Assembly (NCBI GenBank): GCA_964584025.1
Contig: CAZOYE010000010.1
Span: 14,515-78,514 of the forward strand
DNA: 64,000 nt
Reading direction: 5' to 3'
DNA from: an uncultured Ignavibacteria bacterium
GTDB lineage: Bacteria > Zixibacteria > MSB-5A5 > CAIYYT01
Shown: positions 34,501 through 54,806 of the stretch, one piece after another
How the letters are laid out: the number at the start of each line of letters is the position of its first letter
Position numbering within the stretch: the first letter of the stretch is position 1
The notes under the pieces: model-generated
What the model was told of the DNA's origin: nothing
What the model saw: the letters and a program-made list of their open reading frames with translations, nothing else
The model's database searches: none
Program-made: the position numbers and the translations under genes

Positions 34501-35269
34501 CAATGCATCCGGTGATTGGACCGGCTGCGTCGCCAGTCAGTCGAGCAGCAACGGCAATTTCTCGGCTGATCCGATCTTTTGTGACCTGCCAGGGGATGAT
34601 TTCCGGGTCAGAAGTTCTTCGCCCTGCGCGCCGGCAAACAACTCATGCGCCGTTCTGGTCGGCGCTGGATCGCCCGCCTGCGGCAATACGCCAGCAGGAA
34701 GCGACGTAGCTGTCGCTGTGACCGACAGCGTGACGGTGACATTCAACACCGTGACCGACGACGGTGAAACTTCGGTGACGATCTCCGAAAGTGGACCGAA
34801 TCCGCCGGCCGGATTTGAAATTGTGCCATCGACGCCGGAGGCCTACTACGAGATTTCGACGACAGCACCGTACTCTGGCGTGATCGAGATCTGCATCTAC
34901 TACGATCCGGCACAGGTTACCCCCGGTAACGAGGCTGACTTAAAGCTCTTCCACTACGATGGATCAAACTGGTCCGATATCACCAGTACCATTGATCAAG
35001 GCGCCAATGTGATATGCGGCGAAACGACGTCGCTGTCGCCGTTTATCGTCGCGCGGCCGTCGTACATTTGCGGCGACGCCGACGGCACGGCGATTGTAAC
35101 GATCTCTGATGCAGTGTACCTGATCGGCTACATTTTTGGCGGCGGCCCGGCTCCTTCCCCACTGGCGAGCGGCGACGTCGATTGCAGCGGCATCGTGACG
35201 ATTTCGGATGTAGTCTACTTGATCAACTACATCTTCGGCGGCGGCCCGGCACCGTGCGCGGGGTGTTGA
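31529..35269 (+). CDS. Secreted M43 (pappalysin/ulilysin)-like metzincin fused to right-handed beta-helix repeats and Cys-capped double dockerin-like CTD
   Basis: Signal peptide MNSRFYLSLLLAGLAALYA. VHEIGHYFNLMHTHE plus CDTPADP. Repeated NxxAxxGGA(I/L)xxxxS beta-helix-type units. CTD ...[13 protein letters not shown]. Start moved to ATG 31529 because the terminator at 31388 lies inside the longer ORF. Confidence 0.7.
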   Translation: MNSRFYLSLLLAGLAALYAYTPSASADDCGTELTAADIQAISSLLDEQSLARETRSNDFYDLPIAMHIVRQSNGTGGISAAEVEASIDSAIILFAQVNVSIYEIQPVNFIDEDFFYFDMSSSTQMDSLKRYDKVANAVNIYWVPSSSGFGYCGISSFPSSGVQGIIMNNNCGGLLSKNSTLVHEIGHYFNLMHTHEPAFGIECPNGSNCTTAGDLVCDTPADPNVSGHVGLPPDCLYDNFASPPGGCDATPYSPPVDNIMSYSRQSCRDILTPGQVDRFRFAVEKLRPELATLINGVLITPLAVNPLIVPLATKQDSAIVLQNFGGSAVTFNSATSVFGNVVVTGGTPVTLMPSEVGNVTFEYDALALTSSCDLGVVTDTIVITISAPTVWEVRIPVTVNIAYAIPAQAQNSFQSTCLTFTVPNTPALGDRTSAAFLDPISNVLYDGSLLLGLIDGSDTTVYMDMFSQSDYLAADGFVAGTDEYGRTTQTLRFATNDARLSGEVIYHLGGDIGTPDSCQVIEIEYRVRNDCDTNLQVVAGIAADFDIDGSGSNNALVDGVNHIVYVDQGAHAAGFANLMPCPEQGSLRTISNAVSIYPTNGLIDGATYLEMVSPNSGDIFAQDVSVLLSFGKFHLHTGTERTLRAALMSSQFTGVGLQAAANGLRTLSPPGPCFLEVPQIYGTIQEAITAAVDADTIVLAPGTYTGFGNKDLDFQGKKIVVRGAGPTSTFIDCAGSAGSPSRGLRFDDAAENSSVLIEGLAIKNGYAPADGPSFRPNGGAVIVMNGASPTFRNCRFELNFGKRNGGAISVEVGSSVALENCLFVDNSVFDPLDNEYWGGAVYLGSSTSAVITACEFINNSAFAGGALALDNSAVTIVSGCRFIANSAQFAGVVICDAAAADFNGCAFADNFAEIAAGVGYSFNETLSSNFTNCTFVGNFLSTPNPNSGSVYYAQDAAVDFSRSIFYDNSGDEVLVCSGTGAFTIDCSNIFGNASGDWTGCVASQSSSNGNFSADPIFCDLPGDDFRVRSSSPCAPANNSCAVLVGAGSPACGNTPAGSDVAVAVTDSVTVTFNTVTDDGETSVTISESGPNPPAGFEIVPSTPEAYYEISTTAPYSGVIEICIYYDPAQVTPGNEADLKLFHYDGSNWSDITSTIDQGANVICGETTSLSPFIVARPSYICGDADGTAIVTISDAVYLIGYIFGGGPAPSPLASGDVDCSGIVTISDVVYLINYIFGGGPAPCAGC

Positions 35270-35296
35270 GGATCGCTTACAAGGATCTGCCATCGC

Positions 35297-37396
35297 TTAG
35301 TTGTTTGACTCAGCGAACTCCACAAGAGTCTGGCGCAAAATCGCGTGGAGTTCGCTTCTCTGACTACTGGTCAGCCCATCGTCGTGCGGCGGCCAAATCA
35401 TCGCGATCTCCCCAAGAGCCTCGATTCGTCGTCCCGAGTTGTGTTCGAACTGCAGTGCCTGCAATGCGGCATCGAGTTCACCATATCGCGCGAGGGCCAT
35501 GGCACAGCCAGCCACTTCTTTATCGATAATCGGGTCTAAAGTCCCGATCAATCTTGAAGTGGATATTGCGAGGTACCTGTTGATCAACTGAATTGCGCGG
35601 TTCGCACAGCCACTGGCGTGTTGCGCGTCTGCTATTCTGATAATCATATCCGGCCTTATTCTCATCAAGACCGAATCGCGGGCATCAATTAGAGTAGACG
35701 TCGCTTTATCAATGTAGAACTTCACTCGCCCTTTCTTCAGCCAGATATTGCTCGGATTTCCAAGCGATAGCCAATAGTCCAGTTGCTGGGGGATCTCCAA
35801 TTCCTTGCATTTCTGATCAGCTGCTACGAGAACACGTTCAGCCTCGCTGGGATCAGGCCCGTCATACGGCTCTTGAAACCACTCCATGACAAAGCCGACG
35901 TAATCTTCTGGTGCTTTGACCAACTCAAGAATTGTAAGAAAGTCATCAGTGCTTGCGCCGATATCCTGCAATTCGGATGCAACCTTCGCCAGCATCCAGG
36001 AGCGCAACTGAGCATCGCGAATCCTTGCGATTACACGAAGCGCATGCCCCTTGTTGCTGGTGCGGATGCTGGTGTGTATGTATTGACCCAGTTCGTAGCT
36101 GAAGTCCTGTGTCGAAATCGAATCCTGCAACAGGTCTCTCAGTGGACCATAGGAGGGCACCAGTTCATACAAGTTGGTTGCGACAGGGTACCAAGCATCG
36201 CGAGCTCTTGCACTTGGGACTTTCGGTAGTTCCTTCAGATGCGACTCAATAAGTGCCCGCACGTCATCGATTCGCCCACAGATCAGGAATATTCTCGCCA
36301 GTTGCTCTGTAATCTCGAAATGAGTCCATGGATTTGTTACCGATTCAAACGACTCACGTCCTCTCGCGAGCAAGGTCCGGGTGAGAGCAGAGTCTCCGCT
36401 CGCGTGCGCAGCTGACACGACTGGAAGTGCCAGTCGACAGAAGTCATCGCGTTTTGCCCCCAAAGTTATCTCGGAAGCAACAGCGAGCGCTTCATGTGCC
36501 CCCTCCGAATCGCCCGCCAGGACGAACCGGTCGTACGCCGATAGCAACGCGCGAAGCGACCAAGTCGGGAATTGGTCAGCAGCGCGCCGAGCTTTCTCTA
36601 CGGCCTGACTCAGGTCAACATCGAGATACGCCTCCGCAAGTCTCAAGTCAGCCGATGCCTCCTCACTAGGTAAGGTTGCAAGACTTTCTAATTGCTCCAG
36701 GAGAGCCCGGCGTTCGTGAATTCCAAGCAATGGTGAGACCGCCTCGTAAATCAAGTCGAAACGACCCAAGTACCATTTGGGAAATCGTTGCTTGGCAACG
36801 ACAGTCGCGAGCGCGCTATCGGTTAACTCCCGCTGCAGTTGCTTGTCTCCAAGTCTTGCTGCAAGACTCGCTCCCCGTGAGAAGAGCAAGTACTTTCGGT
36901 CATTAAGCGATGGAGTACACAGTGCCTTCAAGCCACGATCAAGATCGCCATAGTCTAAACTAGTTTGAGTGAGGGCGAAAATCAGACTGTGCCGCGTCGA
37001 GATGTGCGTTCCCTCAACAAGTTCGTGCCTTTGTCCCGTTTTAGGGTCGATAGTCTCCACGCGAGGGAATGATTTTGCCAAATATAAGGCCGCACTAAAC
37101 AAGTCCCCTTCTGCCCCTGCACGCTCTCTAAACATCGGCGCCACCGAATCCATTATGGTCGTGGCACTCATCTCGCGCCCGTTGACCACAAAGCGACTAT
37201 CCGGAGCGAGACTGTGGAGTGCCGACAATGCGCGCTCCAGATATTCCCGAGCTTGAGCAAAGCTGGTGCCCTCTGCGACTACCGCACTGTCGAGTACCGC
37301 CTGGATTTTCGCGCTCGAATCAGCGATCAAGTCGCTGTTATAGAAAGCAAGGACGATGACAATCACCGACCTGAATATTGAATTGGACCCTTTCAT
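35297..37396 (-). CDS. Hypothetical secreted alpha-helical repeat protein (no recognisable catalytic motif)
   Basis: Start at the internal Met MKGSNSIFRSVIVIVLAFYNS (signal/TM). Leu/Ala-rich helical composition. Lower local GC. Confidence 0.4.
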   Translation of the reverse strand: MKGSNSIFRSVIVIVLAFYNSDLIADSSAKIQAVLDSAVVAEGTSFAQAREYLERALSALHSLAPDSRFVVNGREMSATTIMDSVAPMFRERAGAEGDLFSAALYLAKSFPRVETIDPKTGQRHELVEGTHISTRHSLIFALTQTSLDYGDLDRGLKALCTPSLNDRKYLLFSRGASLAARLGDKQLQRELTDSALATVVAKQRFPKWYLGRFDLIYEAVSPLLGIHERRALLEQLESLATLPSEEASADLRLAEAYLDVDLSQAVEKARRAADQFPTWSLRALLSAYDRFVLAGDSEGAHEALAVASEITLGAKRDDFCRLALPVVSAAHASGDSALTRTLLARGRESFESVTNPWTHFEITEQLARIFLICGRIDDVRALIESHLKELPKVPSARARDAWYPVATNLYELVPSYGPLRDLLQDSISTQDFSYELGQYIHTSIRTSNKGHALRVIARIRDAQLRSWMLAKVASELQDIGASTDDFLTILELVKAPEDYVGFVMEWFQEPYDGPDPSEAERVLVAADQKCKELEIPQQLDYWLSLGNPSNIWLKKGRVKFYIDKATSTLIDARDSVLMRIRPDMIIRIADAQHASGCANRAIQLINRYLAISTSRLIGTLDPIIDKEVAGCAMALARYGELDAALQALQFEHNSGRRIEALGEIAMIWPPHDDGLTSSQRSELHAILRQTLVEFAESNN

Positions 37397-37421
37397 TCCT
37401 CTCCTCCCAAAGTAGTGCAGA

Positions 37422-38057
37422 TCACTTGTCTCTATGAGGATGACGAATCTGTGTCCGTAATGCAAAATCTTTGCGACCACTTGCACCTGCGTTTCGCTTC
37501 GCTATCATGGGAGCGGTTCTCGAGTCGAGCTCCCGGCTTCCGGTCAACCAAATTCGGCCAAAATCACTCTCCCCTCCTTGCCAAATGCTAACAATTCCGT
37601 CCCAAAACACGATTCTCAGGCTGCCATAAACCCCCGAGTCAAGTATGCCGATCTTGACTTCGGCGCTGCCCGTTTCATATTTCCACGCCTCCGGTGCGTT
37701 AATATCAGCGTCTTCAGTGCCGCCGAACTGGCCGGTATTGTCCAGCGCCCACTGCTGCGAGACTGAATCGTCATCTACAACCGCACCGTGCCAGTCGATG
37801 ATTCCGTTCTGTACCGCGCTCAGTACGTCTTCACTCGATTCTAACTCCTGCGCGGCCCGAGAGGCGCTTGCCGAATCTTCAAAGGTCAGGTTGTAAACAC
37901 CTTTCAGAGTCGGCTTCTCAACCCATATCCCGTCACGACCCTCAACCAAGACATAGTCCGAGTCATTGTCCTCAAAGGTTCGATTGATATAAACCGCGTG
38001 AAACGGTTCGAGAGCGTGCAATATCTCTTCAGATAGGATTGTTGATGTGTCACACAA
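37422..38057 (-). pseudogene. Truncated S8 subtilisin gene fragment (propeptide plus the first catalytic Asp region only)
   Basis: QQWALDNTGQFGGTEDADINAPEAWKYETGSAEVKIGILDSGV parallels QYALNNTGQSGGTVDADIDAPEAWDITTGG...VAIVDGG of the full subtilisin at 59707-63540, then diverges. No ATG start (the track's start is TTG), no signal peptide, and no His/Ser regions. Confidence 0.5.
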
Positions 38058-38148
38058 GTGAAGAGATTTTCCTGCCGGCAGATTGACTATCTCGCCGTGG
38101 AAAATTACACTGACGCTCTTGTGAATTTCAGCCCCAACGAGTGCTGAA

Positions 38149-38172
38149 GAGAGAGAGAGAGAGAGAGAGAGA
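38149..38172. repeat. (GA)12 dinucleotide microsatellite
   Basis: gagagagagagagagagagagaga read directly. It is intergenic, about 90 bp upstream of the subtilisin fragment. Confidence 0.9.
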
Positions 38173-38306
38173 CGACAAGAACGAGGATACGAGTAACCAC
38201 GTTCGTTGTGGCGTCTTGAGATGCCCGAGTACAGTTGACGCTCTGCGCCATATTGCCTCCTGTGCTTCTACTGTACCTTGTCTTTTTAGCCCAATTTCAA
38301 ACGTAC

Positions 38307-39215
38307 TTAGAAAGTAATCTGGTGTTTTTCGCTGCCATCCGGCCGCATCAACCAGAGATGACCATTGTCAGGATCGATCTCCGTAAAGACGATCCATTCT
38401 CCATCGGGCGACCATGCCGGATATCCACCTCCTTTCGATGTAAGTCTCCTGTATTCCTGCGTCCTACAGTCAAAATTCCAGATATTGATCAAACTCGTGC
38501 CCTCAATCCGGCTGATCAGTATCTCTTTACCATTGGGGCTTGCGGCAGCGTAGCGTTTGAGTTGATCCAAGAAAGGGAGCGAAATTGACTCCTGCGCCGA
38601 GATCGAGTAGAGTGAGAGTTCTCCCTGCCAAGTAACCGCGAAGCTGAGTACTGCGATAGAGTCGCAACTTCCGAGCCAATCCCCATACGAAGCGTACTGC
38701 AGAATCAAATTCTGTGCGCCAGATGCTGTGTTGAATTGGTGCATTCCGGCAGTCTGACCAACTCGGATAAAGTAAACGATCTTATCACCGCACGGCGACC
38801 AGCGCGGAAAATGGGCACTCTCGTCGGTTTCAATGTGCTCAACACTATCCTTGGCCAGATTGGTGATGTAGATTTGCCCACCTGTTTTCATCGCGATTCG
38901 AGTGCCATCAGGCGACCAGTCAAAGTCCGAGGCCCAGAAGTTTTCCCACAACAGGGAATCAGAACCTGACTCAACATCATGCAGGAACACCCCCCACACC
39001 CATTGCGTGTCTTTCTGATCAGAGTCATTGTTGAAACTTTTGAAGTAGATGATCTTCTTTCCATCCGGCGACCAGGCGGGAGAGATGTCGATCTCCGTTT
39101 GAGGAATCGGCGGCCAGAATCCATCCTTGTCGTTGTTTCCTTTGTCGCTGCAACCGACTAAGAGTGCCGCCGATAGGCACAGCATAGAAATGAATAGAAA
39201 TCGAATCACAATCAC
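38307..39215 (-). CDS. TolB-like PD40 beta-propeller lipoprotein
   Basis: Lipobox LLVGC. Repeated WSPDG motifs (AWSPDGKKIIYF, FDWSPDGTRIAM, PRWSPCGDKIVYF, AWSPDGEWIVF). Confidence 0.7.
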   Translation of the reverse strand: MIVIRFLFISMLCLSAALLVGCSDKGNNDKDGFWPPIPQTEIDISPAWSPDGKKIIYFKSFNNDSDQKDTQWVWGVFLHDVESGSDSLLWENFWASDFDWSPDGTRIAMKTGGQIYITNLAKDSVEHIETDESAHFPRWSPCGDKIVYFIRVGQTAGMHQFNTASGAQNLILQYASYGDWLGSCDSIAVLSFAVTWQGELSLYSISAQESISLPFLDQLKRYAAASPNGKEILISRIEGTSLINIWNFDCRTQEYRRLTSKGGGYPAWSPDGEWIVFTEIDPDNGHLWLMRPDGSEKHQITF

Positions 39216-39378
39216 CCCCGGGAGCCCACGCCCCGAATTTCAATGTTGTGAATTAGTTCACATCTAATTCAACGCGCGAACTGCGATTTTGTCAAGTGCA
39301 AACTCGCATTCGTTGACAGCACTTTTTGGCGGCAGCGATTGTCGGACGCTACTGCCCAGTTCTGCAAGCGAAGACATT

Positions 39379-39450
39379 ATCTCCGAATCTTGCGTCGTGA
39401 CTGACCGTTACATCTTCGGCGGCGGTCCGGTACCGTGCGCGGGGTGTTGA
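39379..39450 (+). pseudogene. Orphan 3' remnant of a dockerin-like CTD gene (last ~24 codons plus stop)
   Basis: Translates IISESCVVTDRYIFGGGPVPCAGC*. The nucleotides are near-identical to 35220-35272 (acatcttcggcggcggcccggcaccgtgcgcggggtgttga). There is no upstream ORF. Confidence 0.55.
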
Positions 39451-39560
39451 GGGTTTCGGTGACATGTCGTTACTGACAAATACACAACAGCCGCCCGAAT
39501 CGCTTCGGACGGCTGTTTGTTTCCCGGTCCCTGGATCTGGTCAGATCAGATGCGCTAATC

Positions 39561-40940
39561 CTACCCGAATACATCCTTGTTAGTATCGATTTCGTACTTC
39601 TTGATCTTCTCAAATAGAGTGGTATAGTCGATTTGCAGAATGTCAGCGGTCTTGCGCTTGTTGCCGCGCGTCTGGTTGAGTACGCGAATGATCATCGCGC
39701 GCTCAGCCTGCATTTGCGCCAACTGGCCGACTTCCTTGAGGCCCGCACCTTCACGAAGGCGGACATCTTCAGATGTCGACAGACGAATCGCCAGATGCTC
39801 CGGCTTGATCTTCTTGCCTTCCGCCAGAATAATCGCGCGCTCCATCGTATTTTCCAGCTCGCGCACATTGCCCGGCCAGTGATAGCGCTCGAGGATCTGC
39901 AGCGCCTCACGCGAGAGCGATTTCTCACCCTTCTTCATCTGGCGCCAATACTTGTTGATGAAGTAGTTCGCCAACGGAATGACATCCTCGCGGCGCTCGC
40001 GCAGCGGCGGAATATGAATCGGGAATACCGAGAGGCGATAGAACAGGTCTTCGCGGAATTTCTTCTTACCGATGGCTTCTTGAAGATTCATGTTGGTCGC
40101 CGTGATGATGCGGACATCCACCTTGATCGGCTTGGTGCCGCCGAGGCGTTCGAAAGTCTGCTCCTGAAGCACACGCAGGAGCTTGGCCTGCAGCGAGAAT
40201 TCCAGATCGCCGATTTCATCGAGAAAGATCGTGCCGCCGGAAGCGATCTCGAACTTGCCCATCTTGCGGGCGTGCGACGAGGTAAATGCGCCCTTCTCCG
40301 AACCAAACAACTCGTTTTCAAGCAGCTCGCCGGGGATCGCGGCGCAATTGATCGTGATATAGGGTTTGGTCTTGCGCGCCGAAAGCGAATGGATCGCCCG
40401 CGCGAACAGCTCTTTACCCGTGCCCGATTCGCCGGTGAGGAGGATCGTCGTGTCCGAGGAGGCCACCTTCTGGACCAGCCGCATGACATCGATCATCTTC
40501 TCGCTGGTGCCGATGATATCGGTGAAGCCGAGCGATTCGGCCAGTTCCTCGCGCAGGAGGTTGTTTTCCGCGACCAGGCGTTGATTTTCCAGCGCGCGCT
40601 CGACGATCATGCGCAGATGGCTGGTGTCGAACGGCTTTTGCAGGAAATCAAACGCGCCGCGCTTCATGGCCTCGACAGCGGTCTCGATCGTGCCGTAGGC
40701 GGTCATCACGATTACCGCCGAGTCGGGATCAACGTTGCGCACCTGTGACAGTACGTCCATTCCGGAGATATCCGGCATACGCAAATCGGTCAGGATAACG
40801 TCGAAGTGCTTTTCACGTGAGCGCGCGACGCCGACATCGCCGGTTTCTGCGGTTTCGACATCGTAACCGTCCGCGGACAGCGACGCCTTGAGCATTTCGC
40901 GCATGCTGTCTTTGTCATCGATGACAAGAATGTTAGACAC
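39561..40940 (-). CDS. Sigma-54-dependent response regulator (NtrC/Fis family)
   Basis: REC domain (DLRMPD). AAA+ core with GESGTGKELFA and GAFTSS. C-terminal HTH. Confidence 0.9.
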   Translation of the reverse strand: MSNILVIDDKDSMREMLKASLSADGYDVETAETGDVGVARSREKHFDVILTDLRMPDISGMDVLSQVRNVDPDSAVIVMTAYGTIETAVEAMKRGAFDFLQKPFDTSHLRMIVERALENQRLVAENNLLREELAESLGFTDIIGTSEKMIDVMRLVQKVASSDTTILLTGESGTGKELFARAIHSLSARKTKPYITINCAAIPGELLENELFGSEKGAFTSSHARKMGKFEIASGGTIFLDEIGDLEFSLQAKLLRVLQEQTFERLGGTKPIKVDVRIITATNMNLQEAIGKKKFREDLFYRLSVFPIHIPPLRERREDVIPLANYFINKYWRQMKKGEKSLSREALQILERYHWPGNVRELENTMERAIILAEGKKIKPEHLAIRLSTSEDVRLREGAGLKEVGQLAQMQAERAMIIRVLNQTRGNKRKTADILQIDYTTLFEKIKKYEIDTNKDVFG

Positions 40941-41048: not shown

Positions 41049-41720
41049 CTAAGGCTTGCAATTGCGGCACGGCGAATAGCACTCGTCGAGAAACTCCTCG
41101 CGGCTATCGCGACGGATCAGGTGCTTGCTTTCACCGCTCGTCACGGCGTCGCAAGTCGAGCGGTGGAAGCGGCGACTTTCGGTGTTGCCGAAGTAGGCCG
41201 TGTCGGGCCTCTCCGCCGGCAGCGACCAGATTCCCAGCTTCAACCGCAGCGCCGAACGTTGGGCGGCACAGAGCTCCTGAAAGGCCGCATTCGCCAGCTG
41301 GCCTTCGAAGAAGTAGGCTGCGGCCAGCCCCTCTTCGACCAGACGCTCGTTGACGAAAACAGTATCGACGTACACAAACGCGAGCGTTCGTTGATAGCGG
41401 TCGCGGCGTTCCTTACCGTACTCGTAGCGCAACTGGCTTCCGGAATTCAACATCTCTTGAAGTGCTACTTCAGCTTCGCGGGCGAAAGGCTGGCCCTTTT
41501 CAGGAGTGTCGATCCCGAGCAGCCGGATCGTGTTCCCTTCTGAATCACTAAACGTGTCGCCGTCGACGACCTTGATTCCGGCGCCCGCAGGGACGACGTC
41601 GCGCTCGGGAATGTCGGGTTTCTTGCTAATTTCCCGGTAAAGCAGGACGGCAAGGATCAGGAGAATTACGACGAAGAGATGCGAAAACCGAAGGCGCCTG
41701 GAAGAGCGGGATTTGCTCAA
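41049..41720 (-). CDS. Membrane-anchored thermonuclease (SNase)-like nuclease with C-terminal Cys/His-rich tail
   Basis: VVDGDTF...[10 protein letters not shown]... matches the SNase motif. N-terminal TM. Tail HRSTCDAVTSGESKH...CYSPCRNC. Confidence 0.65.
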   Translation of the reverse strand: MSKSRSSRRLRFSHLFVVILLILAVLLYREISKKPDIPERDVVPAGAGIKVVDGDTFSDSEGNTIRLLGIDTPEKGQPFAREAEVALQEMLNSGSQLRYEYGKERRDRYQRTLAFVYVDTVFVNERLVEEGLAAAYFFEGQLANAAFQELCAAQRSALRLKLGIWSLPAERPDTAYFGNTESRRFHRSTCDAVTSGESKHLIRRDSREEFLDECYSPCRNCKP

Positions 41721-43075
41721 TACGACTCGCCCCGGAGCCTTTCGCGCAGCAGCCGCATCTCCTCGGTATCGCGGCCATATTCCTCTGCTTCACCCAGGTG
41801 ATGCTGAGCGCGTTTGTGCTCCCCTTTTTCGTAGAAGATCTCCGCCGCGACGATGTGTGCCGGTTGGTGTGCCGGATTCAAGCGGATGGCCGTATCGATG
41901 GCTTCCGCCGCTTTGTCGAGACGATTAAGAATCAGGTTGTATTCCGCGATAACGATCAACGGTTCCGGATAGGACGGATCAAGTTCCTGAGCGCGGCGAA
42001 CCAACTGCAGCAAGCGCTCGTCGTCACCCACATCCGTCGACTTGATGCGTTCGAGGTGGGCGTAGGCCAAGCCAATTAGGTATCCCGGATCGTAGGGATT
42101 CTTGCGGATCGCCTTCACGAACTCGGCCTCGGCATCATCAATCCGGTCCTGCATGAGATAGACCCAGGCGAGCGCGAAGTTGACCTGCGAACTCTCCGGA
42201 TTCGAACGAAAAGCGCGTCGAATAAACTCTTCCGCCTTATCGTATTGCTGCATCTCCTTGAAGTTGTAGGCGATCCCCATCAGCATTTCGAAATCGACCG
42301 GGTTAAGATCAAGCGCCTCTTCAAACGCCTCGCGGGCGGCTTCGTGATTGCCCTTGCCCAGCAGGAATTCGGCGCGTTGCCGGCAATCGGACTCCAGTTC
42401 CAGCGCCAGATGGAGAAGCGAGTGAACCTCGCGCTTATCGTAATCGAGCTCGAGCGCGCGCAGAAACGCCTCGCGAGCCGCTGCGGCGCGACCCGATTCC
42501 AGCAGGCACTGCCCTAACCCGAGAAGCGCCTTGTGGCTGTATTCGCGGCTTTCGGTGAGATCGCACTCGACGGCTTGCTCGAAATAGTGCACCGCCTCGT
42601 CACGATAAGACATCGCCGCAAGCGTCAGCCCCATTTCTGTAAGATACTTCGACGAATTGGGAAATTCAGAGAGTGAACTTTCCAGCTCCGTCCGGCTCGA
42701 CTTCAGCCGCCCGGACCGTTGATAAACCAGCGAGCGGTGGTAATGAGCTTCGGAAGCCTCCGGGAATTCCCAGCGCACGAATGACTGGGTAGGATTGTGG
42801 CGGATGAAATTATTGTACTCCTCGGCGGAATTGAATTTCATCGCCTGGCTCACGCGTCGGCGGAGGATCCGCGTAATCGAGCTGTTGCGGGAAATGATGC
42901 GATCGGTTTCGCGCAAGACCGTATCGTAGTCGCCGGCCTCCAGGGCCAGGTTAATCGAATCAAAAGGCGCCTGGGGGTCGCCGGCACGCCGGATTCGACG
43001 GACAACTGCCTGCACGAGGTTCCGGAGTCGTTCGATCATACGGGAGCAATGTACGGCACTTTGCCGGATCGTCAA
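41717..43075 (-). CDS. TPR repeat protein
   Basis: Multiple 34-aa TPR-like units (AEAEFVKAIRKNPYDPGYLIGLAYAHL and others). 4-nt overlap with the nuclease gene. Confidence 0.6.
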   Translation of the reverse strand: MTIRQSAVHCSRMIERLRNLVQAVVRRIRRAGDPQAPFDSINLALEAGDYDTVLRETDRIISRNSSITRILRRRVSQAMKFNSAEEYNNFIRHNPTQSFVRWEFPEASEAHYHRSLVYQRSGRLKSSRTELESSLSEFPNSSKYLTEMGLTLAAMSYRDEAVHYFEQAVECDLTESREYSHKALLGLGQCLLESGRAAAAREAFLRALELDYDKREVHSLLHLALELESDCRQRAEFLLGKGNHEAAREAFEEALDLNPVDFEMLMGIAYNFKEMQQYDKAEEFIRRAFRSNPESSQVNFALAWVYLMQDRIDDAEAEFVKAIRKNPYDPGYLIGLAYAHLERIKSTDVGDDERLLQLVRRAQELDPSYPEPLIVIAEYNLILNRLDKAAEAIDTAIRLNPAHQPAHIVAAEIFYEKGEHKRAQHHLGEAEEYGRDTEEMRLLRERLRGESY

Positions 43076-43085
43076 GGCTAAAAGT

Positions 43086-43108
43086 TGATAGTATTATTGA
43101 TACTAATC
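43086..43108. promoter_or_regulatory. Palindromic motif copy 1 (AGTATTATTGATACT)
   Basis: Inverted half-sites AGTAT...ATACT. Lies 10 bp upstream of the TPR gene start. Confidence 0.3.
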
Positions 43109-43265
43109 CAGACAACTCGTCGGCGCCCGAGTTGAGAGCGGCCCGTTTCTTTGTAAGCCTTTGATTAATAACGCCGCCATGGCAAGACGGCGAATCTGCA
43201 GATATGACCTGTCTGGCAATTCTGGTCGAAACGACCAGTCGCCGTTGTTGCCTTGGTCATTATTT

Positions 43266-43280
43266 AGTATTAGTGATACT
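43266..43280. promoter_or_regulatory. Palindromic motif copy 2 (AGTATTAGTGATACT)
   Basis: Same 7-1-7 palindrome, 180 bp from copy 1. Confidence 0.3.
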
Positions 43281-43464
43281 TATTAATCTCTCGCGACACA
43301 CCGATTTCATCGTAATGGAGATCGATGCCTCCCGAGCCGTCTTTGCGGGCGTTACACCACTTGTGTTGCTTTGCAAGCAGTTAGCCTGGGCGACCTTTGT
43401 AGAAGCGCCCGCGGGGGGTGCGAATCAACCCGACGCGGCGTCCTGTCTTGGAGCTGATATTGAA

Positions 43465-43479
43465 AGTATTAATGATACT
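43465..43479. promoter_or_regulatory. Palindromic motif copy 3 (AGTATTAATGATACT)
   Basis: Same palindrome, 199 bp from copy 2. Confidence 0.3.
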
Positions 43480-43752
43480 ATATGCTCATTTAGGGCGTGT
43501 CTTCGCGATGCCATTGCGAAGAGGCTTTCGGTGCCGGGCCTTTCGGCCAAACACCCTTCAAATCCGACTATTCAGTTGCGCTCACTCTATAAGACTGAAG
43601 ATTGGGTCAGAAAAGCCGGAACTGGCTGGCCATGCGAGGCAGACACCACAGCCCGTAGCCGTGAATTGGGAGAAACTTAAGCCGGCTCCCTCCGGCCAGC
43701 CGGCGGCTCGCTTGACCGGCAGCTGCTGGGCCTGAGAAAACCAAAAATTTTC

Positions 43753-43780
43753 TTGACAATTTCTTGTCCGACTGTACATT
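43753..43780 (+). promoter_or_regulatory. Candidate promoter TTGACA-16-TACATT far upstream of the giant gene
   Basis: Direct sequence match. Would yield a ~600-nt leader. Confidence 0.25.
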
Positions 43781-44374
43781 GTTGCCGGTTGGTTGAACGT
43801 TTTGATGTACCTACCGTACATTACTCTCAGCACAAACAGCACGTTTTAGTTAACGAATTAGTTAACAGCACAAGCCTCTCACACTAGGCACTGTCATTTC
43901 GATGCGATTTTTGTTACACAAGATCGTGCTCGTGGTGAACTGCGTCCTCCTATTCTCTTTATTCACCAAATCCTCATTCGCTTGACTTGTCGCAACTACT
44001 AACTGATTGAAGCAAGACGCAGTCTTGAGGAGGTGTGATCGCTTCGGGCGGTTCACAGTCGATAAAGCTATCGAGACGAAAATTACTGTGTACGACCTTA
44101 CCCGGGGAAACTAATGCTACGTTCGGAAGTACCGAAACTATTAGCAGAGGTAACCCCAATCTCCAAGATTAGGAATCCTTGAGACAAGTAGTTGGCCTGC
44201 TGACCCACAACCCTAGACAAGTTACGGGTCGCCGCCAGCTCCAAGGTCCCTGATCGGCTGTCGCAGGCTACATGATCTGCTGCAACGACAGGGTACTTAG
44301 GTTGGTGTGCCGCAGCTTTGAGCTGCAAGGCCGGACTACAAACGTATTTTCCTAACTGTGTAAGGAGGAAGTAC

Positions 44375-47300
44375 ATGTTCAAAAGACTTTTGCTGGTCGT
44401 GTTGACTTTGGCCTTGATTCTGGGCCTGAGCAGCATGGCTTTTGCAACCAAGGATCCGAGTTCCTTTAAAGTTGGCACGTATACGATCGGCACTCCTGGA
44501 GCCGGCCGCGCGCTACATCAGCCGCAGCCGATCCATCCGCCGACGACTCCGTATTCAGGCGGCATTGCTCAACCTTTGCCGAATCCGCAGCAGCCGGCCG
44601 CTCGTTCGAGCGCGGCCACCTGCGACTGGCAGGCCCAGTATGGCACCATTAGCTTCTATTTTAATGGTTCCGCTGGATTCGGCCAGGCAGTGCGTTGGTC
44701 ACAGACCAATTCTGCTGAAGTCTGTTCCCTGAAGACGATTAGTCTGTTGATTTACGGCGCCGCGAGCACCTTTGGTGCTTCGGCGGGCGTAACCTCCTAC
44801 GTATGGGCCGACGATGGAACCGGACTTCCTGGTGCCGTCATCTACTCAGTGAACGTTCCGCATGCGAGCATTCTGTTCTATCCGTCATACACGGATGTCG
44901 ATGTCTCGTCTGCGAATCTTGTTTTCTCCGGTGTGACTGAATACCACACTGGTTTCATTCCGAACAGCATTGCCGACACCTACGCCTGCTTGATGGATAA
45001 CGGCGACGGCGGACCGAACGCGTCCACCAGTCTCTACATCCAGGGCACGGGTTGGTTCGGTAACGGCGGCGTGTTCGTGAGCGGTGACATCAACTGGGCG
45101 CAAGAGATCTACACCTGCTGCTACGAAGCTGGTGACCCGGGTATCTGCGATACTCAGTTGTGGCATTGCGGTGTTGTGTATCGCTGGCCCGGTTTCTGGG
45201 CTGCCGAGCGCTTCACTGCCGCTGGCGAATGCACGCTGAAGACGGTGCGTCTGAGCATCTCTTCGTTCGGTACTGCCGCTTATGTCGGTGGTATTGACGC
45301 TCTCATTTACGCCGACAACGGCGGCCTTCCGGGAACGATTCTCGGCAGCGTCCACGTCCCGGATGCATCGATTACGTTTGCTCCTGGCATGACGTCAGTC
45401 GACGTTTCGGGTCTGGGCCTCGTGTTCAATAACGAGGACTACCACGTCGGTTATCGCCCGGTCAATCCGGCTGAAGATTATCAGCCGATTGGCGACGACG
45501 GCGAAATTCCGGCGACCTGTCCCGAGGGCGGCGTCCTTCGTGGTTCCGCGTCCCTTGATTTGGGCGCCACCTGGGATTACATGGCCAACATCGACATCGG
45601 TTACGATGATAACTGGGTGTTTGAAGTTGACTATTGCTGCGCGGCTGTCGTGAACCTTTGCGACAACCTCAACTATGCTGGTTCTCCGTTCTATTACTGG
45701 ACTGAGCCGGACGTTTATGGCGACCAGTTCCGTAACATGCGGTTTACCAACGCCGAATACTGCACGCTGAAGACCGTCAACCTGAACTTCTATGCTCCGG
45801 GTTCAGTCGGTGCTCCGGGCGCGCAAATCTACATTTGGAATTCGGACGGCCAGTTCCCGACTTCCGTGATCACGACCTACAACGTGAACCCGGTTGTTGA
45901 TTACTTCCCGACCGCGACCAGTGTCGATGTTTCGGCTGCGAACATTCTTCTGGCGGGTGACTACCACGTCGGATATTCCACGATTCTTAACGCCCCGACC
46001 GATGTGTTGGCGATTCTTTCGGACGACGGAACCACAGGTTCGCTTCGTTCGAGCGAGTTCTACTCCGGTCAGTGGTGGTTAATGGCGAACAGCTGGGGTG
46101 CGGATGTCAACTTCTTGATTGACGTCGACCGCTGCTGCACGCCTCCGGGTTATTGCCCGATCTTCTGCTCGCCGACCGATCAGTGGCCGACCTTCTCGCA
46201 CGACTATGCTCGTACGGGCCAGTCGCAACTGACTCTGGGCGACCTTTGCGGTATCGTGAAGGTTTGGCAGTATGACGGTCCCGCGGCTGTCAACGGCCTC
46301 AACTTCACCCAGCCCTTGATCTACAATGACCTGGTTTATGCTGCTTACAACGATCGCGTTGTCGCTGTCGACCTGCAGACCGGCGCGCTGGTGTGGGATA
46401 CCTTTACCCTCGGGTATGGTCTCATCATCACCAACTCGCTGCGTTGCCAGATGACGATCGACCCGACCGGCTTGTACTTTGGTACTGGTGCTCTCCGCGG
46501 ATTCGCGAAAGCAGATCTGGCGACCGGTGCGAACATCTGGGCGCGCGGCGTTGGCGTTGCCAACCCGCTTCCGGGTACGCCGGGCCAGACTCGTTTCGCC
46601 GGTTCCGTGATCGTCGGCAACGAAGTGTACTTTGGTTGCGAAAACTCCCAGATCTACGCTCTCAATGCCACGACCGGTGCCGACCTGTACTCAGCCCAGC
46701 TTTACACCGATGCCGGCAACACCGTGAAGGGTTCGATCTACGGACCGGCCACGACCGACGGCAGCGATTTGTTCTTCGGGTTGACCGCCAACCTTCTGGG
46801 CGCGACCAACGGCCTTGGCGCCGTGATCTCGGTCAGCTACGGTGGTGCGTTTACCCAGAACTGGAAGCACATCAGCGCTTTCCAGGCTGTGCTGCATGAG
46901 AACTTTGCGGCAGGCACAACCTATCGTTGTGACAACCTGTTCGTTCACGCTTCGTTTGCCTTCGGCAACCAGGGCGACTATTCCGGTTACCGTCAGAACC
47001 TCGATCCGGCTACGGGTACCCCGATCTGGACTTCGACGTTCCTGATGGGCCAGAATATCTTCTGCCCGCCGGCTGCCGGCAACGAACTGGTGTTCTTCCC
47101 GAACATCAATAACGGCTTCGGCAGCCCGAACGCCGGAACCCGCGGCGTGCGTGCGGTCAACTTTGCGAACAGCACGGTTTGGCTCAATGCCGCTTCCGAT
47201 GCCGCGAACAACAACGTGTTCAACTCGCCGGCGGTCACCTGCGATCCGTACGTCATGTATGGTTCGTATGACCTGATCGGCTTTGACTACCACTGGGGTA

Positions 47301-49410: not shown

Positions 49411-50478
49411 ATGGCTACCTCAGTTGCAGAATCCGTGATAAATGACATCATCGCAGTCGTTGCGCGCTACGTGACCGTCGACGGCTATTATTCTCGGCGG
49501 CGGGAGATCAATATTCGCGCCAGTCTCGAGCAGGCGCCCGCGGACTGGAAGCTGCAGTTATCGCGCGAACTGGCTCCCCTCGGCTACTCGCTGTCGGTGC
49601 ATGTCAACGGAATGACGGCGCATCTTCAGATCTATCCCGGCGGCAAGCGCTTCCCGTGGCTGAATATCCTGCTGTTCGTCTTAACGGCGATTTCCGTCTC
49701 GATCCTGCCCGGGCTTTTCAGTGAAGGCACCCGTATCTTCAGCGAGCCCGCCGTGTTTCTGCACTGGCAGAAGTTTGCCGTTCCACTGCTCTTGATTCTG
49801 CTCTTTCATGAATTCGGCCATTACCTGGCGGCGCGACGCCGGGGGATTCGCGTATCGTTGCCGTACTTTCTGCCCGCACCGACGATCATTGGGACATTCG
49901 GCGCCTTCATCAAGTCGAACTCTCCGTTTCCGTCGCGCCGCGATTTAATGGAGGTCGGCGCTTACGGACCGATCGCGGGGTTTGTCGTCGCCGTGGGCGT
50001 GCTCGCTGTGGCTCTGGCGGACGTGACCTACCGTCTGACGCCACCGATTGCAGAGGGCGGTATGCTGGTGGAGCCGCTGATTATGCGGCTACTTGAGGCG
50101 CTCATCTGGACACATCCCTCGCCCGCAGGATACAATATCTATCTGCAGGACAATCCGCTGCTTTTCGCTGCCTGGGTCGGAATGATCGTGACCGCCCTCA
50201 ATCTTCTGCCGGTGGGTCAGCTCGACGGCGGGCATATCGTCTATTCACTTTCGCCGCGCTGGCACTATTGGATTTCGCGCCTCATGTTTGGCTTCATGGT
50301 GGCGATGGGATTCATGTGGGAGGGCTGGTGGATCTGGGCGGCGATGGTTTTCTTCGTGATTCGCTTCGCTCATCCGCCGACGCTCAACGATTATGAGCCG
50401 ATTGACCGCCGCACGCGCTGGACCGGATTTGCCGCGCTGGCGATCTTTGTTCTGACGTTCTCGCCGGTACCGTTCTGA
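49411..50478 (+). CDS. Site-2 protease family (M50) intramembrane metalloprotease
   Basis: HEFGHYLAARRRG (HExxH) in a TM segment. LNLLPVGQLDGGHIV matches the LDG motif. Multiple TM. Confidence 0.8.
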   Translation: MATSVAESVINDIIAVVARYVTVDGYYSRRREINIRASLEQAPADWKLQLSRELAPLGYSLSVHVNGMTAHLQIYPGGKRFPWLNILLFVLTAISVSILPGLFSEGTRIFSEPAVFLHWQKFAVPLLLILLFHEFGHYLAARRRGIRVSLPYFLPAPTIIGTFGAFIKSNSPFPSRRDLMEVGAYGPIAGFVVAVGVLAVALADVTYRLTPPIAEGGMLVEPLIMRLLEALIWTHPSPAGYNIYLQDNPLLFAAWVGMIVTALNLLPVGQLDGGHIVYSLSPRWHYWISRLMFGFMVAMGFMWEGWWIWAAMVFFVIRFAHPPTLNDYEPIDRRTRWTGFAALAIFVLTFSPVPF

Positions 50479-50509
50479 TTGCGTGAAAATCCGAAAACTG
50501 AGGCGTGGG

Positions 50510-52033
50510 CTACGAGACGTTGGCGTGGGCATGCTGCTCGTCCGTCTCAGCGACGAAATTGTAGATCGTGTCGAGCTTGTCGCGGTTCTTCTGGATTGCT
50601 TCGATGAAGATCTCAACGATCTGGGGATCAAATTGCCTGCCGGCGAAATCGCGCAGTTCCTGTACGGCCGCTGCGATGCTCTTGCCGCGCCGATACGGGC
50701 GGTCGGTAACGATGGCGTCAAACGTGTCGGCGACCGCGAGAATGCGCCCCTCGACGGGTATGCCCTCGGCCGTTAATCCGGCTGGATAGCCGGAACCATC
50801 CCACTGCTCGTGATGCGACATGATATAGGGGAGACACGGCTGCAGAAAGGGAATGCCTTCGATCATGCGGGCGCCGACTTCGGTGTGGCGCTGCATAATG
50901 ACGCGCTCGGAATCGGTGAGGCGGCCCGGTTTGTTAAGAATCGAATCGGGTACGCCGATCTTGCCGATGTCGTGAAGAGAACAGCCCATCGTCAGAGTGA
51001 AAATCCTCTCGTCATCCCACTCGAGCTGTTTGGCGATGAGTTCCGCCAGATAGGTAACGCGCACGGTGTGCCCGGAAGTGTAGCGGTCGCGGGCTTCAAC
51101 GGCATTGGCGAGCGCGATGATCGTCGACAAGTACGCCTTTTCGAGGTCATCGTAGAGTTTCGAATTGGAAATGGCGTAGGCCGCTTTGGAGGCGATCACC
51201 TTCAAGCATTGCAGTTCTCCCGTTGAAAATTCGCGATAGAGGCTGTTGCGGGCGATATTGAGCACGCCTAAGACCCGGCCGCGTACCAGCAGCGGGCAGG
51301 ACAACAGCGACTCCACACGCGACTGGCTGGCGGCGTCGATTAAAGCGGGGTTCTCGAAGTAGATATTCTCGATTTCGATCACGCGGGATTCGGCGGCAGC
51401 CTGCGAGTGCCGCGTCCGTCCTTCGAGAAACTCCCGATCGACCGGAATCTCCGGAACCGTTTGAATCGCCTGGAGAATGAAGCGATTGGCCAACGCCTGG
51501 TCGTAGAAGAGGATCGAAGCGCCGTCGGCGTTGAATTCTTTGATTGTCAGCCGCAGCACCTGATTGAGAGCGGTTCCGAGATGAATCGTCGACCCCATCG
51601 CTTCGGCGATCTTGAACAGGGCGAGTTGTTCCTTGAGGTGGATGTTCTCGCGCGCCAGCATCTGCTTGCGCAGCCCGCGTTCCACGATCGCGAGGAGATT
51701 CTCCATCTTGAACGGCTTAACGATATAGTCGTAGGCGCCATGCTTGAGCGCGTCGATGGCGTTCTCCATCGTCGGGTAGCCGGTCATGAGAATGACAATG
51801 GTATCCTCGGCATGTTCAAGGGCGGCTTCGATCATTTGCATGCCGGAATGCGAGCCCATCATCAGGTCGGTGAGCACGAGGTCGAACTGGCTGGATTTGA
51901 GCATCGCCAGAGCCTTCTGAGGGTCGCTTTCGGCGATGACGCGATAGGAGTCGTGGACCTGGATCATCTCCCGGACGACATCACAGACGATCGGCTCGTC
52001 GTCGATTACTAGGACCCTGTGTTTGTGGATCAT
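50510..52033 (-). CDS. Response regulator with GAF and HD-GYP (c-di-GMP phosphodiesterase) domains
   Basis: REC (VLVIDDEP...DLVLTDLMM). HD-GYP motifs HTVRV...LHDIGKIGVPD...GYP. Confidence 0.8.
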   Translation of the reverse strand: MIHKHRVLVIDDEPIVCDVVREMIQVHDSYRVIAESDPQKALAMLKSSQFDLVLTDLMMGSHSGMQMIEAALEHAEDTIVILMTGYPTMENAIDALKHGAYDYIVKPFKMENLLAIVERGLRKQMLARENIHLKEQLALFKIAEAMGSTIHLGTALNQVLRLTIKEFNADGASILFYDQALANRFILQAIQTVPEIPVDREFLEGRTRHSQAAAESRVIEIENIYFENPALIDAASQSRVESLLSCPLLVRGRVLGVLNIARNSLYREFSTGELQCLKVIASKAAYAISNSKLYDDLEKAYLSTIIALANAVEARDRYTSGHTVRVTYLAELIAKQLEWDDERIFTLTMGCSLHDIGKIGVPDSILNKPGRLTDSERVIMQRHTEVGARMIEGIPFLQPCLPYIMSHHEQWDGSGYPAGLTAEGIPVEGRILAVADTFDAIVTDRPYRRGKSIAAAVQELRDFAGRQFDPQIVEIFIEAIQKNRDKLDTIYNFVAETDEQHAHANVS

Positions 52034-52246
52034 GCTGCCCTGTGAACCTGTCCTCTGTTAACTTAATGCGTCCGGTAAGTACTAACGCTTTTTTGCCTAA
52101 CCCATTCCAACTCACCTCTTGTATCGTCCACTCCGCGAACTCAGATTACCCGGCACGCTGTGCAAATGTTGGCCTAATGCGGCGGATGTGCGAAAAACGC
52201 GCATGAAGTCTTGACAGAAGCGCCGATATTATTAATAGTAAGTTTC

Positions 52247-52795
52247 ATGCTGGTAACACGTACCGATTTGATCATCATGGCCTGCCTGTCAGAGCAACCC
52301 GCGCACGGTTGGGATATCGACCGCCGACTGGTTGAGATGGGCGCCGATCTCTGGGCCGAATACTCACGCCCGAATCTCTACTATGCCTTGCGCAAACTCG
52401 AGCGCGGCGGCATGATTGAACGCGTCAAGCAGGGCGCGCAGGGGCTACGTAAACCGTACCGAATCACTTCGCGCGGGCAGGCGGCGCTGCACGACACCGC
52501 CAATCTGGAACAGCTGTTTCACAGTCGGACTTACTTCGATTTCGATCTGATTCTGGGATTTGCCGGGCAGCTGGCGTCGCGCGATACCGACTGGGCCGCC
52601 TTGATCGAACGCCGTCAGGAAGAGCTCAGCAGCGAACTCGACCGCGCGCAGGAATTGTGGCAGCAGGCGGAAATGACCGCGGGGATATCTTTCGGGCGGC
52701 AGGCTGCCATGCGCCACCGCATCAAGTTTCTCAAGTCGGAAATGGAGTTCGTCAAGTGGCTGGCGAAAAATGCGCCGGAGGACTGGACGAAGTAA
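52247..52795 (+). CDS. PadR-family transcriptional regulator
   Basis: LSEQPAHGWDIDRRL...LYYALRKLERGGMIER winged-helix PadR signature. Start placed at ATG 52247 (the track's 52211 start is a TTG within a TTGACA box). Confidence 0.7.
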   Translation: MLVTRTDLIIMACLSEQPAHGWDIDRRLVEMGADLWAEYSRPNLYYALRKLERGGMIERVKQGAQGLRKPYRITSRGQAALHDTANLEQLFHSRTYFDFDLILGFAGQLASRDTDWAALIERRQEELSSELDRAQELWQQAEMTAGISFGRQAAMRHRIKFLKSEMEFVKWLAKNAPEDWTK

Positions 52796-54457: not shown

Positions 54458-54806
54458 TTCAACTCCTCGGCACAATCATCAGAAACAATACGAAGCTTTG
54501 CCGGTCTTGTAAAGCTTTAACCACCAAGAGTTAACGAATTCAATCGACTGGTCGTCAATGACTTACAATCAAAGCCAATGTGAAAAAAATCACTAAATAA
54601 TAGTTGACACAAATTATAGTAATTTTTATGTTGAGCCCAGCGATGTATTTGGCGAAAAACACAATATAGAGAAGGAAAGAACTGCGGTAGCCGGCGAGTG
54701 ACGACTTATGCAAGAAAGTATTGTGAAATCTTTCACATTATTGTCGGCGCGCACTGACGCTTGCCGCATGCCATCTGATCTCTAATGCAGGGAAAGAGGT
54801 ATCGCC

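Follow-up and report, generated by a model that had tools for sequence, protein, structure and literature searches.

A conserved array of palindromic operator-like sites upstream of a TPR-nuclease operon in Zixibacteria-type bacteria, with a PadR-family protein as candidate regulator

Introduction

Transcription factors of the PadR family are nearly always repressors. They recognize palindromes of varied sequence built around an AT-rich centre, regulate their own production, and often act through two operators (PMC5728393; PMC5050560). Specifically, the operator of B. subtilis PadR has been described as CNTGNA-N6-TNCANG (PMC5728393), that of C. difficile cdPadR1 as TACT-N11-12-AGTA with an AT-rich core, and that of LmrR as ATGT-N8/10-ACAT (PMC5050560). 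The only precedent within the family for bridging between sites is provided by the higher-order complexes that cdPadR1 forms on DNA (PMC5050560). The present analysis concerns three palindromes, designated O1, O2 and O3, found in a 64-kb stretch of DNA from an uncultured Ignavibacteria bacterium (assembly GCA_964584025.1, contig CAZOYE010000010.1, positions 14,515 to 78,514; the whole stretch is hereafter referred to as the window), where they lie upstream of an operon encoding a TPR protein and a staphylococcal-nuclease-like protein. Comparison of these sites with their counterparts in related genomes suggests, with a rough probability of 0.55, that all three are operators of a symmetric dimeric winged-helix regulator, most likely the PadR-family protein encoded ~9 kb from the array within the same conserved gene block.

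Several similarities are apparent between this locus and the PadR-padC system of B. subtilis, the LmrR-lmrCD system of L. lactis and the cdPadR1 system of C. difficile. Firstly, the candidate regulator is a winged helix-turn-helix (HTH) protein with near-invariant recognition-helix and wing motifs. Secondly, the sites are AT-rich palindromes, a copy is present in the regulator's own promoter, and the target carries more than one operator. Additionally, the half-sites use AGTA/TACT-type tetranucleotides, as do those of cdPadR1. Despite these similarities, the dyad, AGTATTA-N-TAATACT (15 bp, arranged 7-1-7), corresponds to none of the three published patterns; three operators are distributed at fixed spacing over 390 bp, with none on the core promoter; the target is a TPR-nuclease operon and not a set of detoxification or efflux genes; and binding is predicted from sequence. 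The motif is compatible with the PadR family and is not of the ATGT/ACAT type.

A second point of comparison is offered by looping switches such as araO2-araI1 (AraC), galOE-OI (GalR) and lacO1-O2-O3. As in these switches, the locus combines a proximal site near -58/-60 with auxiliary sites 176 to 375 bp away, the distance between operators is kept while the intervening sequence is free to vary, length variants lie ~10 bp apart, and a possible IHF-like bend site is located between operators. The locus differs from them in the family of its regulator, in a phasing that is weak and is absent from a distant clade of relatives, and in that tetramer formation by PadR is hypothetical.

Three Palindromes in a Noncoding Gap

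An exact search of the window for AGTATTANTGATACT returned three matches, all in the same plus-strand orientation (Table 1), whereas 0.09 were expected from dinucleotide-preserving shuffles (n = 100), none of which equalled the observed count. No further match was found in the window with up to two mismatches allowed, and the looser pattern AGTAT-N5-ATACT recovered the same three sites only. The original prediction, made from the letters of the window, had described three copies of a palindrome AGTAT(T/C)A-N-TGATACT, each in an AT-rich patch, at spacings of 180 and 199 bp. The three copies and the local AT-richness of their flanks are borne out by the search, as is the 199-bp start-to-start distance between O2 and O3. 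The distance between O1 and O2, measured from the first 15-mer (43090-43104), is 176 bp, the value of 180 having arisen because flanking bases of copy 1 were counted in. The form of the motif holds in part: when lineages are compared, a symmetric consensus emerges, AGTATTA-N-TAATACT, in which position 6 tolerates Y.

Similarity among the copies reaches ~21 nt and no further, the extended repeat TTGAWAGTATTAWTGATACTA being found in copies 1 and 3. A dispersed mobile repeat or miniature inverted-repeat transposable element was considered and rejected, as the similarity stops at this length and the copies occur only at orthologous positions. More generally, the shortness of the motif, and nothing more, speaks for a chance repeat or a dispersed repeat family, and the likelihood of either is negligible given the expected number of matches, the limited extent of similarity, the maintenance of orthologous positions across deep divergence, and the finding that, apart from copies at the PadR promoter and within the sequence coding for the nuclease N-terminus, no others occur in the window or the fetched loci.

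The palindromes are situated in a 1335-bp gap which, in agreement with its initial description as a noncoding region of 1.3 kb, contains no conserved open reading frame (ORF) and no Rfam match (scan of 42900-44500, E up to 1). A 158-aa ORF within it (43204-43680, plus strand) was rejected as a gene, having no Pfam match and no counterpart in a 96%-identical relative, L001. A 244-aa ORF called in four relatives, L003-L006 (L003 9173-9907), was likewise rejected, as it lies on the opposite strand, is not conserved and has no Pfam match. Both have probably been called as genes in error in public annotations. A search for short leaderless ORFs beginning immediately beyond each site gave none that is conserved.

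Position of the Array Relative to the TPR Promoter

The TPR gene starts at the ATG at position 43039, a start that is conserved among orthologues, all of which begin at the same ATGATCGAAC. Since the TTG at 43075, far from being a start codon, belongs to the -35 box TTGACG, copy 1 is 50 nt upstream of the start codon; the edge of O1 is thus 14 nt upstream of the -35 box, with its centre ~58 nt upstream of the TPR ATG, and not 10 bp upstream of the operon start as had been proposed. Neither the TPR gene nor the PadR gene (starts at 43039 and 52247) is preceded by a Shine-Dalgarno sequence, and each starts 8 nt after a -10-like hexamer. In this they are unlike the gene to the right of the gap, which encodes on the plus strand a 1630-aa secreted protein with a PQQ-like propeller and a C-terminal dockerin (ATG at 44375; hereafter the giant gene) and which has a strong Shine-Dalgarno sequence, AAGGAGGAA. 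The TPR and PadR mRNAs are probably leaderless, with transcription starts placed by inference, the former because its promoter ends 8 nt before the ATG. For this lineage, the -10 hexamer seems to follow the consensus (G)TACATT, and the TPR core promoter matches that of the giant gene, which looks unregulated.

The proximity of O1 to this promoter raises the question of whether the palindromes are AT-rich promoter elements (UP elements or cryptic -10 sequences such as TATTAT), curved DNA or RNA hairpins acting with no dedicated factor. O1 does occupy the position of an UP element (-50 to -65). A hexamer close to the -10 consensus is present in every copy, and at the PadR promoter the -10 region is itself provided by the copy. 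An explanation of this kind is nevertheless quite improbable, as O2 and O3, at -234 and -433, are remote from any promoter and have no conserved -35 box, as strict dyad symmetry with compensating orientation flips between lineages is the signature of dimer binding, and as the motif written as RNA gives only a 5-bp A-U-rich stem.

Conservation of the Array Among Relatives

A scan of a genome collection with the TPR protein identified L001, in which that protein is 96% identical, and protein searches combined with contig look-ups yielded about a dozen distinct orthologous loci with TPR identities from 94% down to 47%. Source records call the orthologous loci Zixibacteria, and L001 is labelled Ignavibacteria. 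In the window, the minus-strand genes to the left of the gap encode, in order, the TPR protein, the nuclease (whose gene overlaps the end of the TPR gene by 4 nt, in the same operon), an NtrC-type response regulator/sigma-54 activator and a PD40 protein; beyond the giant gene lie genes for an M50 protease, a protein with response regulator, GAF and HD domains (RR-GAF-HD; minus strand) and PadR. The order PadR, RR-GAF-HD, M50, giant protein, a gap of 1.3-1.7 kb, TPR and nuclease is usual, being found in most loci; in L007, PadR and RR-GAF-HD are located on a separate contig (L031) of the same assembly.

Alignment of the window with L001 by blastn demonstrates that the flanks are 89-98% identical, and the TPR start with its promoter and the whole giant-gene leader ~98%, while ~490 bp of the intergenic region is unalignable. 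Within these diverged ~490 bp, O1, O3 (with one change), half of O2 and a block, TAATCAAAGGCTTA, persist as conserved islands, the consensus of O2 being kept in L001 in one half-site only. The copies therefore behave as operators are expected to, standing as islands in otherwise diverged DNA, as had been anticipated. An invertible promoter, in which the segment between sites is inverted, was rejected, the same comparison having given no reverse-strand match.

The wider set of loci extends this pattern. A 15-bp dyad of the O1 type lies between -64 and -69 relative to the TPR ATG in all orthologous loci, down to 47% TPR identity, and every one of them displays the same succession of dyad, 13-14 nt, CTTGAC(G/C), 16 nt, TACATT, 8-9 nt and ATG. 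Counterparts of O2 at about -241 (-241 to -243 in L001, L003, L014, L008 and L009) and of O3 at -430 to -517 are found in all lineages with a TPR identity of at least 62%; a pair of upstream dyads is likewise seen in the distant clade, where their distances vary more. The pooled consensus, AKTATYA-N-TRATAMT, is a symmetric 7-1-7 palindrome, the distant-clade variant of which reads ATTATCA-N-TGATAAT, and the C/T asymmetry of the window motif flips orientation between lineages, as expected for the site of a symmetric dimer. Overall, it is very probable that the three palindromes are protein-binding operators.

In some lineages, full-strength copies of the motif are also embedded in the nuclease coding region, where it encodes an N-terminal membrane helix (Table 1). 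In one example, ATA GTA TCA ATA ATA CTA encodes IVSIIL by means of AT-rich ATA codons in a genome of ~55% GC. These copies are located at +1372 to +1387 from the TPR ATG and could, in the lineages that carry them, represent a downstream auxiliary operator; no such copy is present in the window, L001, L003, L007 or L008.

A separate observation concerns the far side of the operon, where ~4.2 kb of the window (35266-39486, which holds the gene for the PD40 protein and two ORFs lacking a Pfam match) has no counterpart in L001. In its place L001 carries ~2.5 kb of other DNA (13553-16011), pointing to a local replacement or indel, between flanks of 89-94% nucleotide identity.

Identity of the Regulator

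Orthologous sites were used to build a position weight matrix (PWM), with which the window and ~314 kb of fetched loci were searched. Across the ~314 kb, scores of at least 19 were obtained only at the TPR arrays, in the N-terminal coding region of the nuclease gene and directly upstream of PadR. In the window, the last of these positions is occupied by a fourth and weaker copy, a putative autoregulatory operator over the spacer and -10 hexamer of a PadR promoter whose geometry is the same as that of the TPR promoter. A copy in this position is found in nine of 11 lineages, including the one in which PadR is unlinked from the TPR locus (Table 1), and in an alignment of ten PadR upstream regions the dyad, together with a CGCCGAT prefix, is the best-conserved palindrome. 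Because the copy sits in the PadR promoter, even in the lineage with an unlinked PadR, the protein is read as an autoregulated binder of the sites, an assignment for which the sequence comparisons offer somewhat better than even odds. Of the regulators proposed at the outset (PadR, an Rrf2-family protein or the sigma-54 activator), it is thus PadR that the fourth copy favours, and the other two have lost ground.

The closest relatives of the protein with solved structures, both distant, are 8jxk and B. subtilis PadR (5x11), and among orthologues that are 44-98% identical the recognition segment WAEYSRP(N/H)LYY(A/S)LRKL is invariant save at two positions. Covariation between the recognition helix and variants of the motif was looked for; N/H, the one helix position that varies, shows no correspondence with the G/T difference at motif position 2. 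The outer AGTA/TACT blocks of the consensus are ~10-11 bp apart, which fits the dyad of a winged-HTH dimer (half-site centres ~10-12 bp apart), and ATGT/ACAT half-sites are not found in the motif.

Several points weigh against PadR as the binder, and some of them lend support to a different dimeric transcription factor, encoded elsewhere, that would co-regulate the TPR-nuclease operon and padR while PadR binds another dyad. The link to PadR is correlative, consisting of synteny and the site in the PadR promoter. Neither the canonical PadR dyad ATGT-N8-ACAT nor the ATGT-N8/10-ACAT recognized by several members of the family (PMC5050560) corresponds to the motif. Canonical half-sites are present in ATGTAC-N5-GTACAT (43806-43822), in the giant-gene leader, and a second palindrome, ATGTGCG-N5-CGCGCAT (52187-52205), lies upstream of the PadR -35 box; were either of these canonical-looking dyads the true PadR site, the AT-rich motif could belong to another factor. 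In the window, the PadR-promoter copy is a weak one (15.7), and it is degenerate in L027 and L029, in spite of intact TPR arrays in both. Lastly, the distant-clade form ATTATCA-N-TGATAAT uses heptamers like those of the Fur box (TGATAAT-N-ATTATCA), itself a 15-bp AT-rich 7-1-7 element.

A separately encoded factor is on balance fairly unlikely. Upstream of PadR, the AT-rich dyad surpasses every other palindrome in conservation, and it travels with the unlinked PadR, whereas the ATGTGCG dyad is kept in only ~5 of 11 lineages, and the ATGTAC hairpin shows compensatory changes inside a structured leader, where an RNA role explains it. With respect to Fur, the order of the half-sites is reversed relative to the 7-1-7 box, so that the heptamers face outward, the near-clade consensus is AGTATTA, and the targets are not metal-homeostasis genes. 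PadR operators are, moreover, diverse, as illustrated by CNTGNA-N6-TNCANG (PMC5728393) and TACT-N11-12-AGTA (PMC5050560).

The two remaining regulators of the original prediction fare less well. The palindromes could in principle form an upstream activating sequence (UAS) or enhancer array at which the NtrC-type regulator (39561-40940) loops onto a sigma-54 promoter. As in sigma-54 UAS arrays, dyads are distributed 60-430 bp upstream, several of them within 100-450 bp, an IHF-like element is present, and the gene for an NtrC-type activator adjoins, following the nuclease gene in the window, L003, L008 and L012. Such an array is very improbable here: the conserved TPR promoter is of the sigma-70 -35/-10 type and has no -24/-12 elements, matches to TGGCAC-N5-TTGCW occur at chance frequency with none in the gap at fewer than three mismatches, and the sole GG-N10-GC candidate (43372-43387, minus strand) is destroyed in L001. 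In addition, the sites are kept in L007 and L010, whose loci have no activator gene, and a copy at the PadR -10 region would make no sense for an enhancer. Even less probable are operators of the Rrf2-family regulator (54807-55214). AT-rich dyads are indeed recognized by Rrf2 proteins, and the window and the conserved neighbourhood both include the gene, but no motif copy is found near it; its upstream region bears a Rex-type box, TTGTGAAATCTTTCACAT, instead, it sits with dCTP deaminase and pyruvate:ferredoxin oxidoreductase genes, and in L031 the motif accompanies PadR and not Rrf2.

Further observations concern the PadR neighbourhood. The dyad upstream of the PadR -35 box, in the PadR/RR-GAF-HD intergenic region, is ATGTGCGAAAAACGCGCAT, conserved to the extent given above. 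In the same region, the blocks GCTGTGCAAA and TATCGTC (52157-52166 and 52112-52118) are conserved in nearly all lineages and may constitute the promoter of the divergent RR-GAF-HD gene. Finally, in most lineages PadR, RR-GAF-HD (HD-GYP-like) and the M50 site-2 protease (window 49411-52795 and related loci) share synteny with the giant dockerin protein, a linkage that hints at a signalling module; no anti-sigma or extracytoplasmic function (ECF) sigma gene was seen in the block.

Operator Spacing and a Proposed Mechanism

The distance between O1 and O2 is exactly 176 bp in six lineages (the window, L001, L003, L014, L008 and L009), with zero net indels in the 161-nt spacer; elsewhere it is 166 bp (L029), 186 bp (L013) or 158 bp (L007). 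The window and L001 share 56% of spacer positions in an ungapped comparison (compared with 77% at third codon positions), a value that falls to 24-27% against L008 and L009, the random expectation being 25%. Replacement of the spacer by foreign DNA was considered and rejected, as an identity of 56% between the window and L001, against 25% at random, identifies it as fast-evolving homologous DNA. A constraint on spacing or looping is plausible because O1 and O2 have stayed 176 bp apart while the sequence of the spacer has been randomised. Distances between O2 and O3 vary more widely (177, 189, 191, 198/199, 220/221 and 264 bp).

DNA looping had been raised as a possibility in the original prediction, and the conserved distance renders it plausible; helical phasing of the operators is suggestive only. 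O1-O2 lengths of 166, 176 and 186 bp step by one helical turn, with 158 bp (L007) outside the series. A Rayleigh-type test over helical periods of 10-11.2 bp gave P ~0.02-0.05 in the near clade, post hoc and from few independent distances, and no signal in the distant clade. Between O1 and O2, a tentative IHF-like bend site, AATCAAAGGCTTA, matches WATCAANNNNTTR and is a conserved island between the window and L001; the corresponding position in other lineages shows semi-conserved sequence only (ACCAACAGCTTG, TTCAACAAGATA), and the case for a bend site here is weak.

The array had also been suggested to control the divergent giant gene. O3 lies 288 to 408 bp from the -35 box of that gene, depending on the lineage and with no phase pattern, and the giant-gene promoter was rejected as the anchor of the array on these grounds. 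Since this distance varies while the geometry on the TPR side is rigid, the array is assigned to the TPR promoter, and shared control is not supported.

We infer the identity of the binding protein, the sign of regulation and looping, together with the transcription starts, and the following mechanism is accordingly worded as a proposal. PadR would bind the weaker fourth copy over the -10 of its own promoter and repress its own production by occluding that hexamer. PadR would also occupy O1, centred at ~-58, just upstream of the -35 box and a T-rich UP-like tract of the TPR promoter, as well as the more distant auxiliary sites, O2 (176 bp beyond O1) and O3 (375 bp beyond O1). Occupancy of O1 would be stabilised cooperatively by O2 and O3 through a loop or a higher-order PadR complex of fixed contour length. 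In this way the TPR-nuclease promoter would most likely be held repressed until a ligand or signal releases PadR. Repression is favoured because of the habit of the family and because the core promoter looks intrinsically competent. That such repression operates by looping at the TPR promoter is put forward tentatively, at somewhat short of even odds. A more specific version, in which PadR dimers on O1-O3, perhaps aided by the IHF-like bend, close an exact 176-bp loop that gates a leaderless promoter, is decidedly unlikely.

Difficulties are also encountered with respect to this mechanism. As O1 is clear of the core promoter, simple occlusion fails to explain repression, and the strict distance from O1 to the -35 box would fit an activator, or a GalR-like contact with RNA polymerase, equally well. 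To our knowledge, no PadR protein has been described as looping DNA. The phasing statistics, for the reasons given with them, must likewise be counted among these points.

The Giant-Gene Leader

The giant gene seems to be controlled through a long structured leader RNA of its own. A leader of ~600 nt (43787-44385, plus strand), running from the promoter of this gene to its ATG, shows conservation in each of the ten lineages examined, and to a higher degree than the coding DNA that flanks it. RNAalifold, applied to a ten-sequence alignment of the leader, identified 39 pairs changed on both sides, compared with 18.4 +/- 2.9 in shuffles (0 of 500 reaching 39) and 15-21 in slid controls. The predicted structure forms a 5' hairpin from ATGTAC-N5-GTACAT, pairs the 5' end of the leader, UUGAACGU (43794-43801), with the start-codon region, AUGUUCAA (44375-44382), and sequesters the Shine-Dalgarno sequence (44363-44369) in a hairpin with UUCCU (44349-44353). 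Because it has no Rfam match, the leader may be an undescribed cis-regulatory RNA.

The palindrome at 43806-43822, just downstream of the giant-gene promoter, is perfect (ATGTAC-CTACC-GTACAT, or ATGT-N9-ACAT) and conserved; in L027 it has undergone a double compensatory change (ATGTGA...TCACAT). The element could act as a 5' hairpin in the RNA or as a site on the DNA. The surrounding block can also be read as an ECF-type TGAAC-N17-CGTA promoter.

Table 1. Coordinates of the sites, promoters and genes discussed in the text. Positions refer to the window unless a locus is named; empty cells, no value.
Feature	Position	Strand	Basis or remark
O1, promoter-proximal operator-like site, AGTATTATTGATACT	43090..43104	none	exact motif match
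O2, middle operator-like site, AGTATTAGTGATACT	43266..43280		exact motif match; 176 bp from O1
O3, distal operator-like site, AGTATTAATGATACT	43465..43479		exact motif match; 199 bp from O2
O1-O2 spacer, 161 nt	43105..43265		length fixed, sequence free
IHF-like bend site (tentative)	43154..43166	-	between O1 and O2
TPR operon promoter, TTGACG (43075-43070)-16 nt-TACATT (43053-43048)-8 nt-ATG	43048..43075	-	sigma-70-type consensus scan
TPR protein gene, 440 aa, first gene of operon	41717..43039	-	Pfam TPR families
Staphylococcal-nuclease-like gene	41049..41720	-	PF00565, E=1e-20; syntenic in all loci
NtrC-type response regulator gene (Response_reg, Sigma54_activat, HTH_8)	39561-40940	-	after nuclease gene
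Giant-gene promoter, TTGACA-16-TACATT	43753-43780	+	sigma-70-type scan; ~600 nt before giant gene
PadR promoter, (C)TTGACA (52211-52216)-16 nt-TAATAG (52233-52238)-8 nt-ATG	52211..52238	+	sequence and conservation
Fourth motif copy, putative autoregulatory operator, GATATTATTAATAGT	52225..52239		spacer and -10 of PadR promoter; PWM 15.7
PadR-family regulator gene, 182 aa, long type with C-terminal dimerisation domain	52247..52795	+	PF03551
Rex-type box upstream of Rrf2, dCTP deaminase and pyruvate:ferredoxin oxidoreductase genes	54721-54738		
PadR-promoter copy, L001 and L003			PWM 15.7, as in window
PadR-promoter copy, L008			PWM 24.4
PadR-promoter copy, L009			PWM 25.9
PadR-promoter copy, L030			PWM 25.9
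PadR-promoter copy, L011			PWM 19.4
PadR-promoter copy, L028			PWM 19-20; PadR only 44% identical
PadR-promoter copy, L031			PWM 16.8; PadR and RR-GAF-HD unlinked from TPR locus (L007)
PadR-promoter copy, L027 and L029			degenerate; TPR arrays intact
Nuclease-embedded copies	L013:2541-2555; L015:1690; L016:3095; L017:4376; L018:4376		
Nuclease-embedded copies, continued	L009:11385; L011:11373; L012:2163; L010:2537		

Implications

Although the regulon motif is new, and the array a neat instance of conserved operators, it is an ordinary kind of regulatory element. A search of the literature found no paper naming both Zixibacteria and PadR. Should the looped arrangement of PadR dimers on O1-O3 prove true, it would represent the PadR family's first described case of DNA looping between multiple operators, maintained throughout an uncultured phylum, with the 176-bp loop coupled to a block encoding PadR, an HD-GYP response regulator, an M50 protease and a giant dockerin protein. 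Independently of that arrangement, the retention of a 176-bp spacing across a randomised spacer amounts to an unusually clean natural experiment on spacing or looping constraint. The analysis also defines probable leaderless promoters for the lineage (TTGAC-16-TACATT-8-ATG) and sets control of the TPR-nuclease operon apart from that of the neighbouring giant secreted protein. Most directly, it provides an operator motif and a target set for what is, in our reading, a PadR-family regulator in Zixibacteria-type bacteria, a group with no described regulatory sites.

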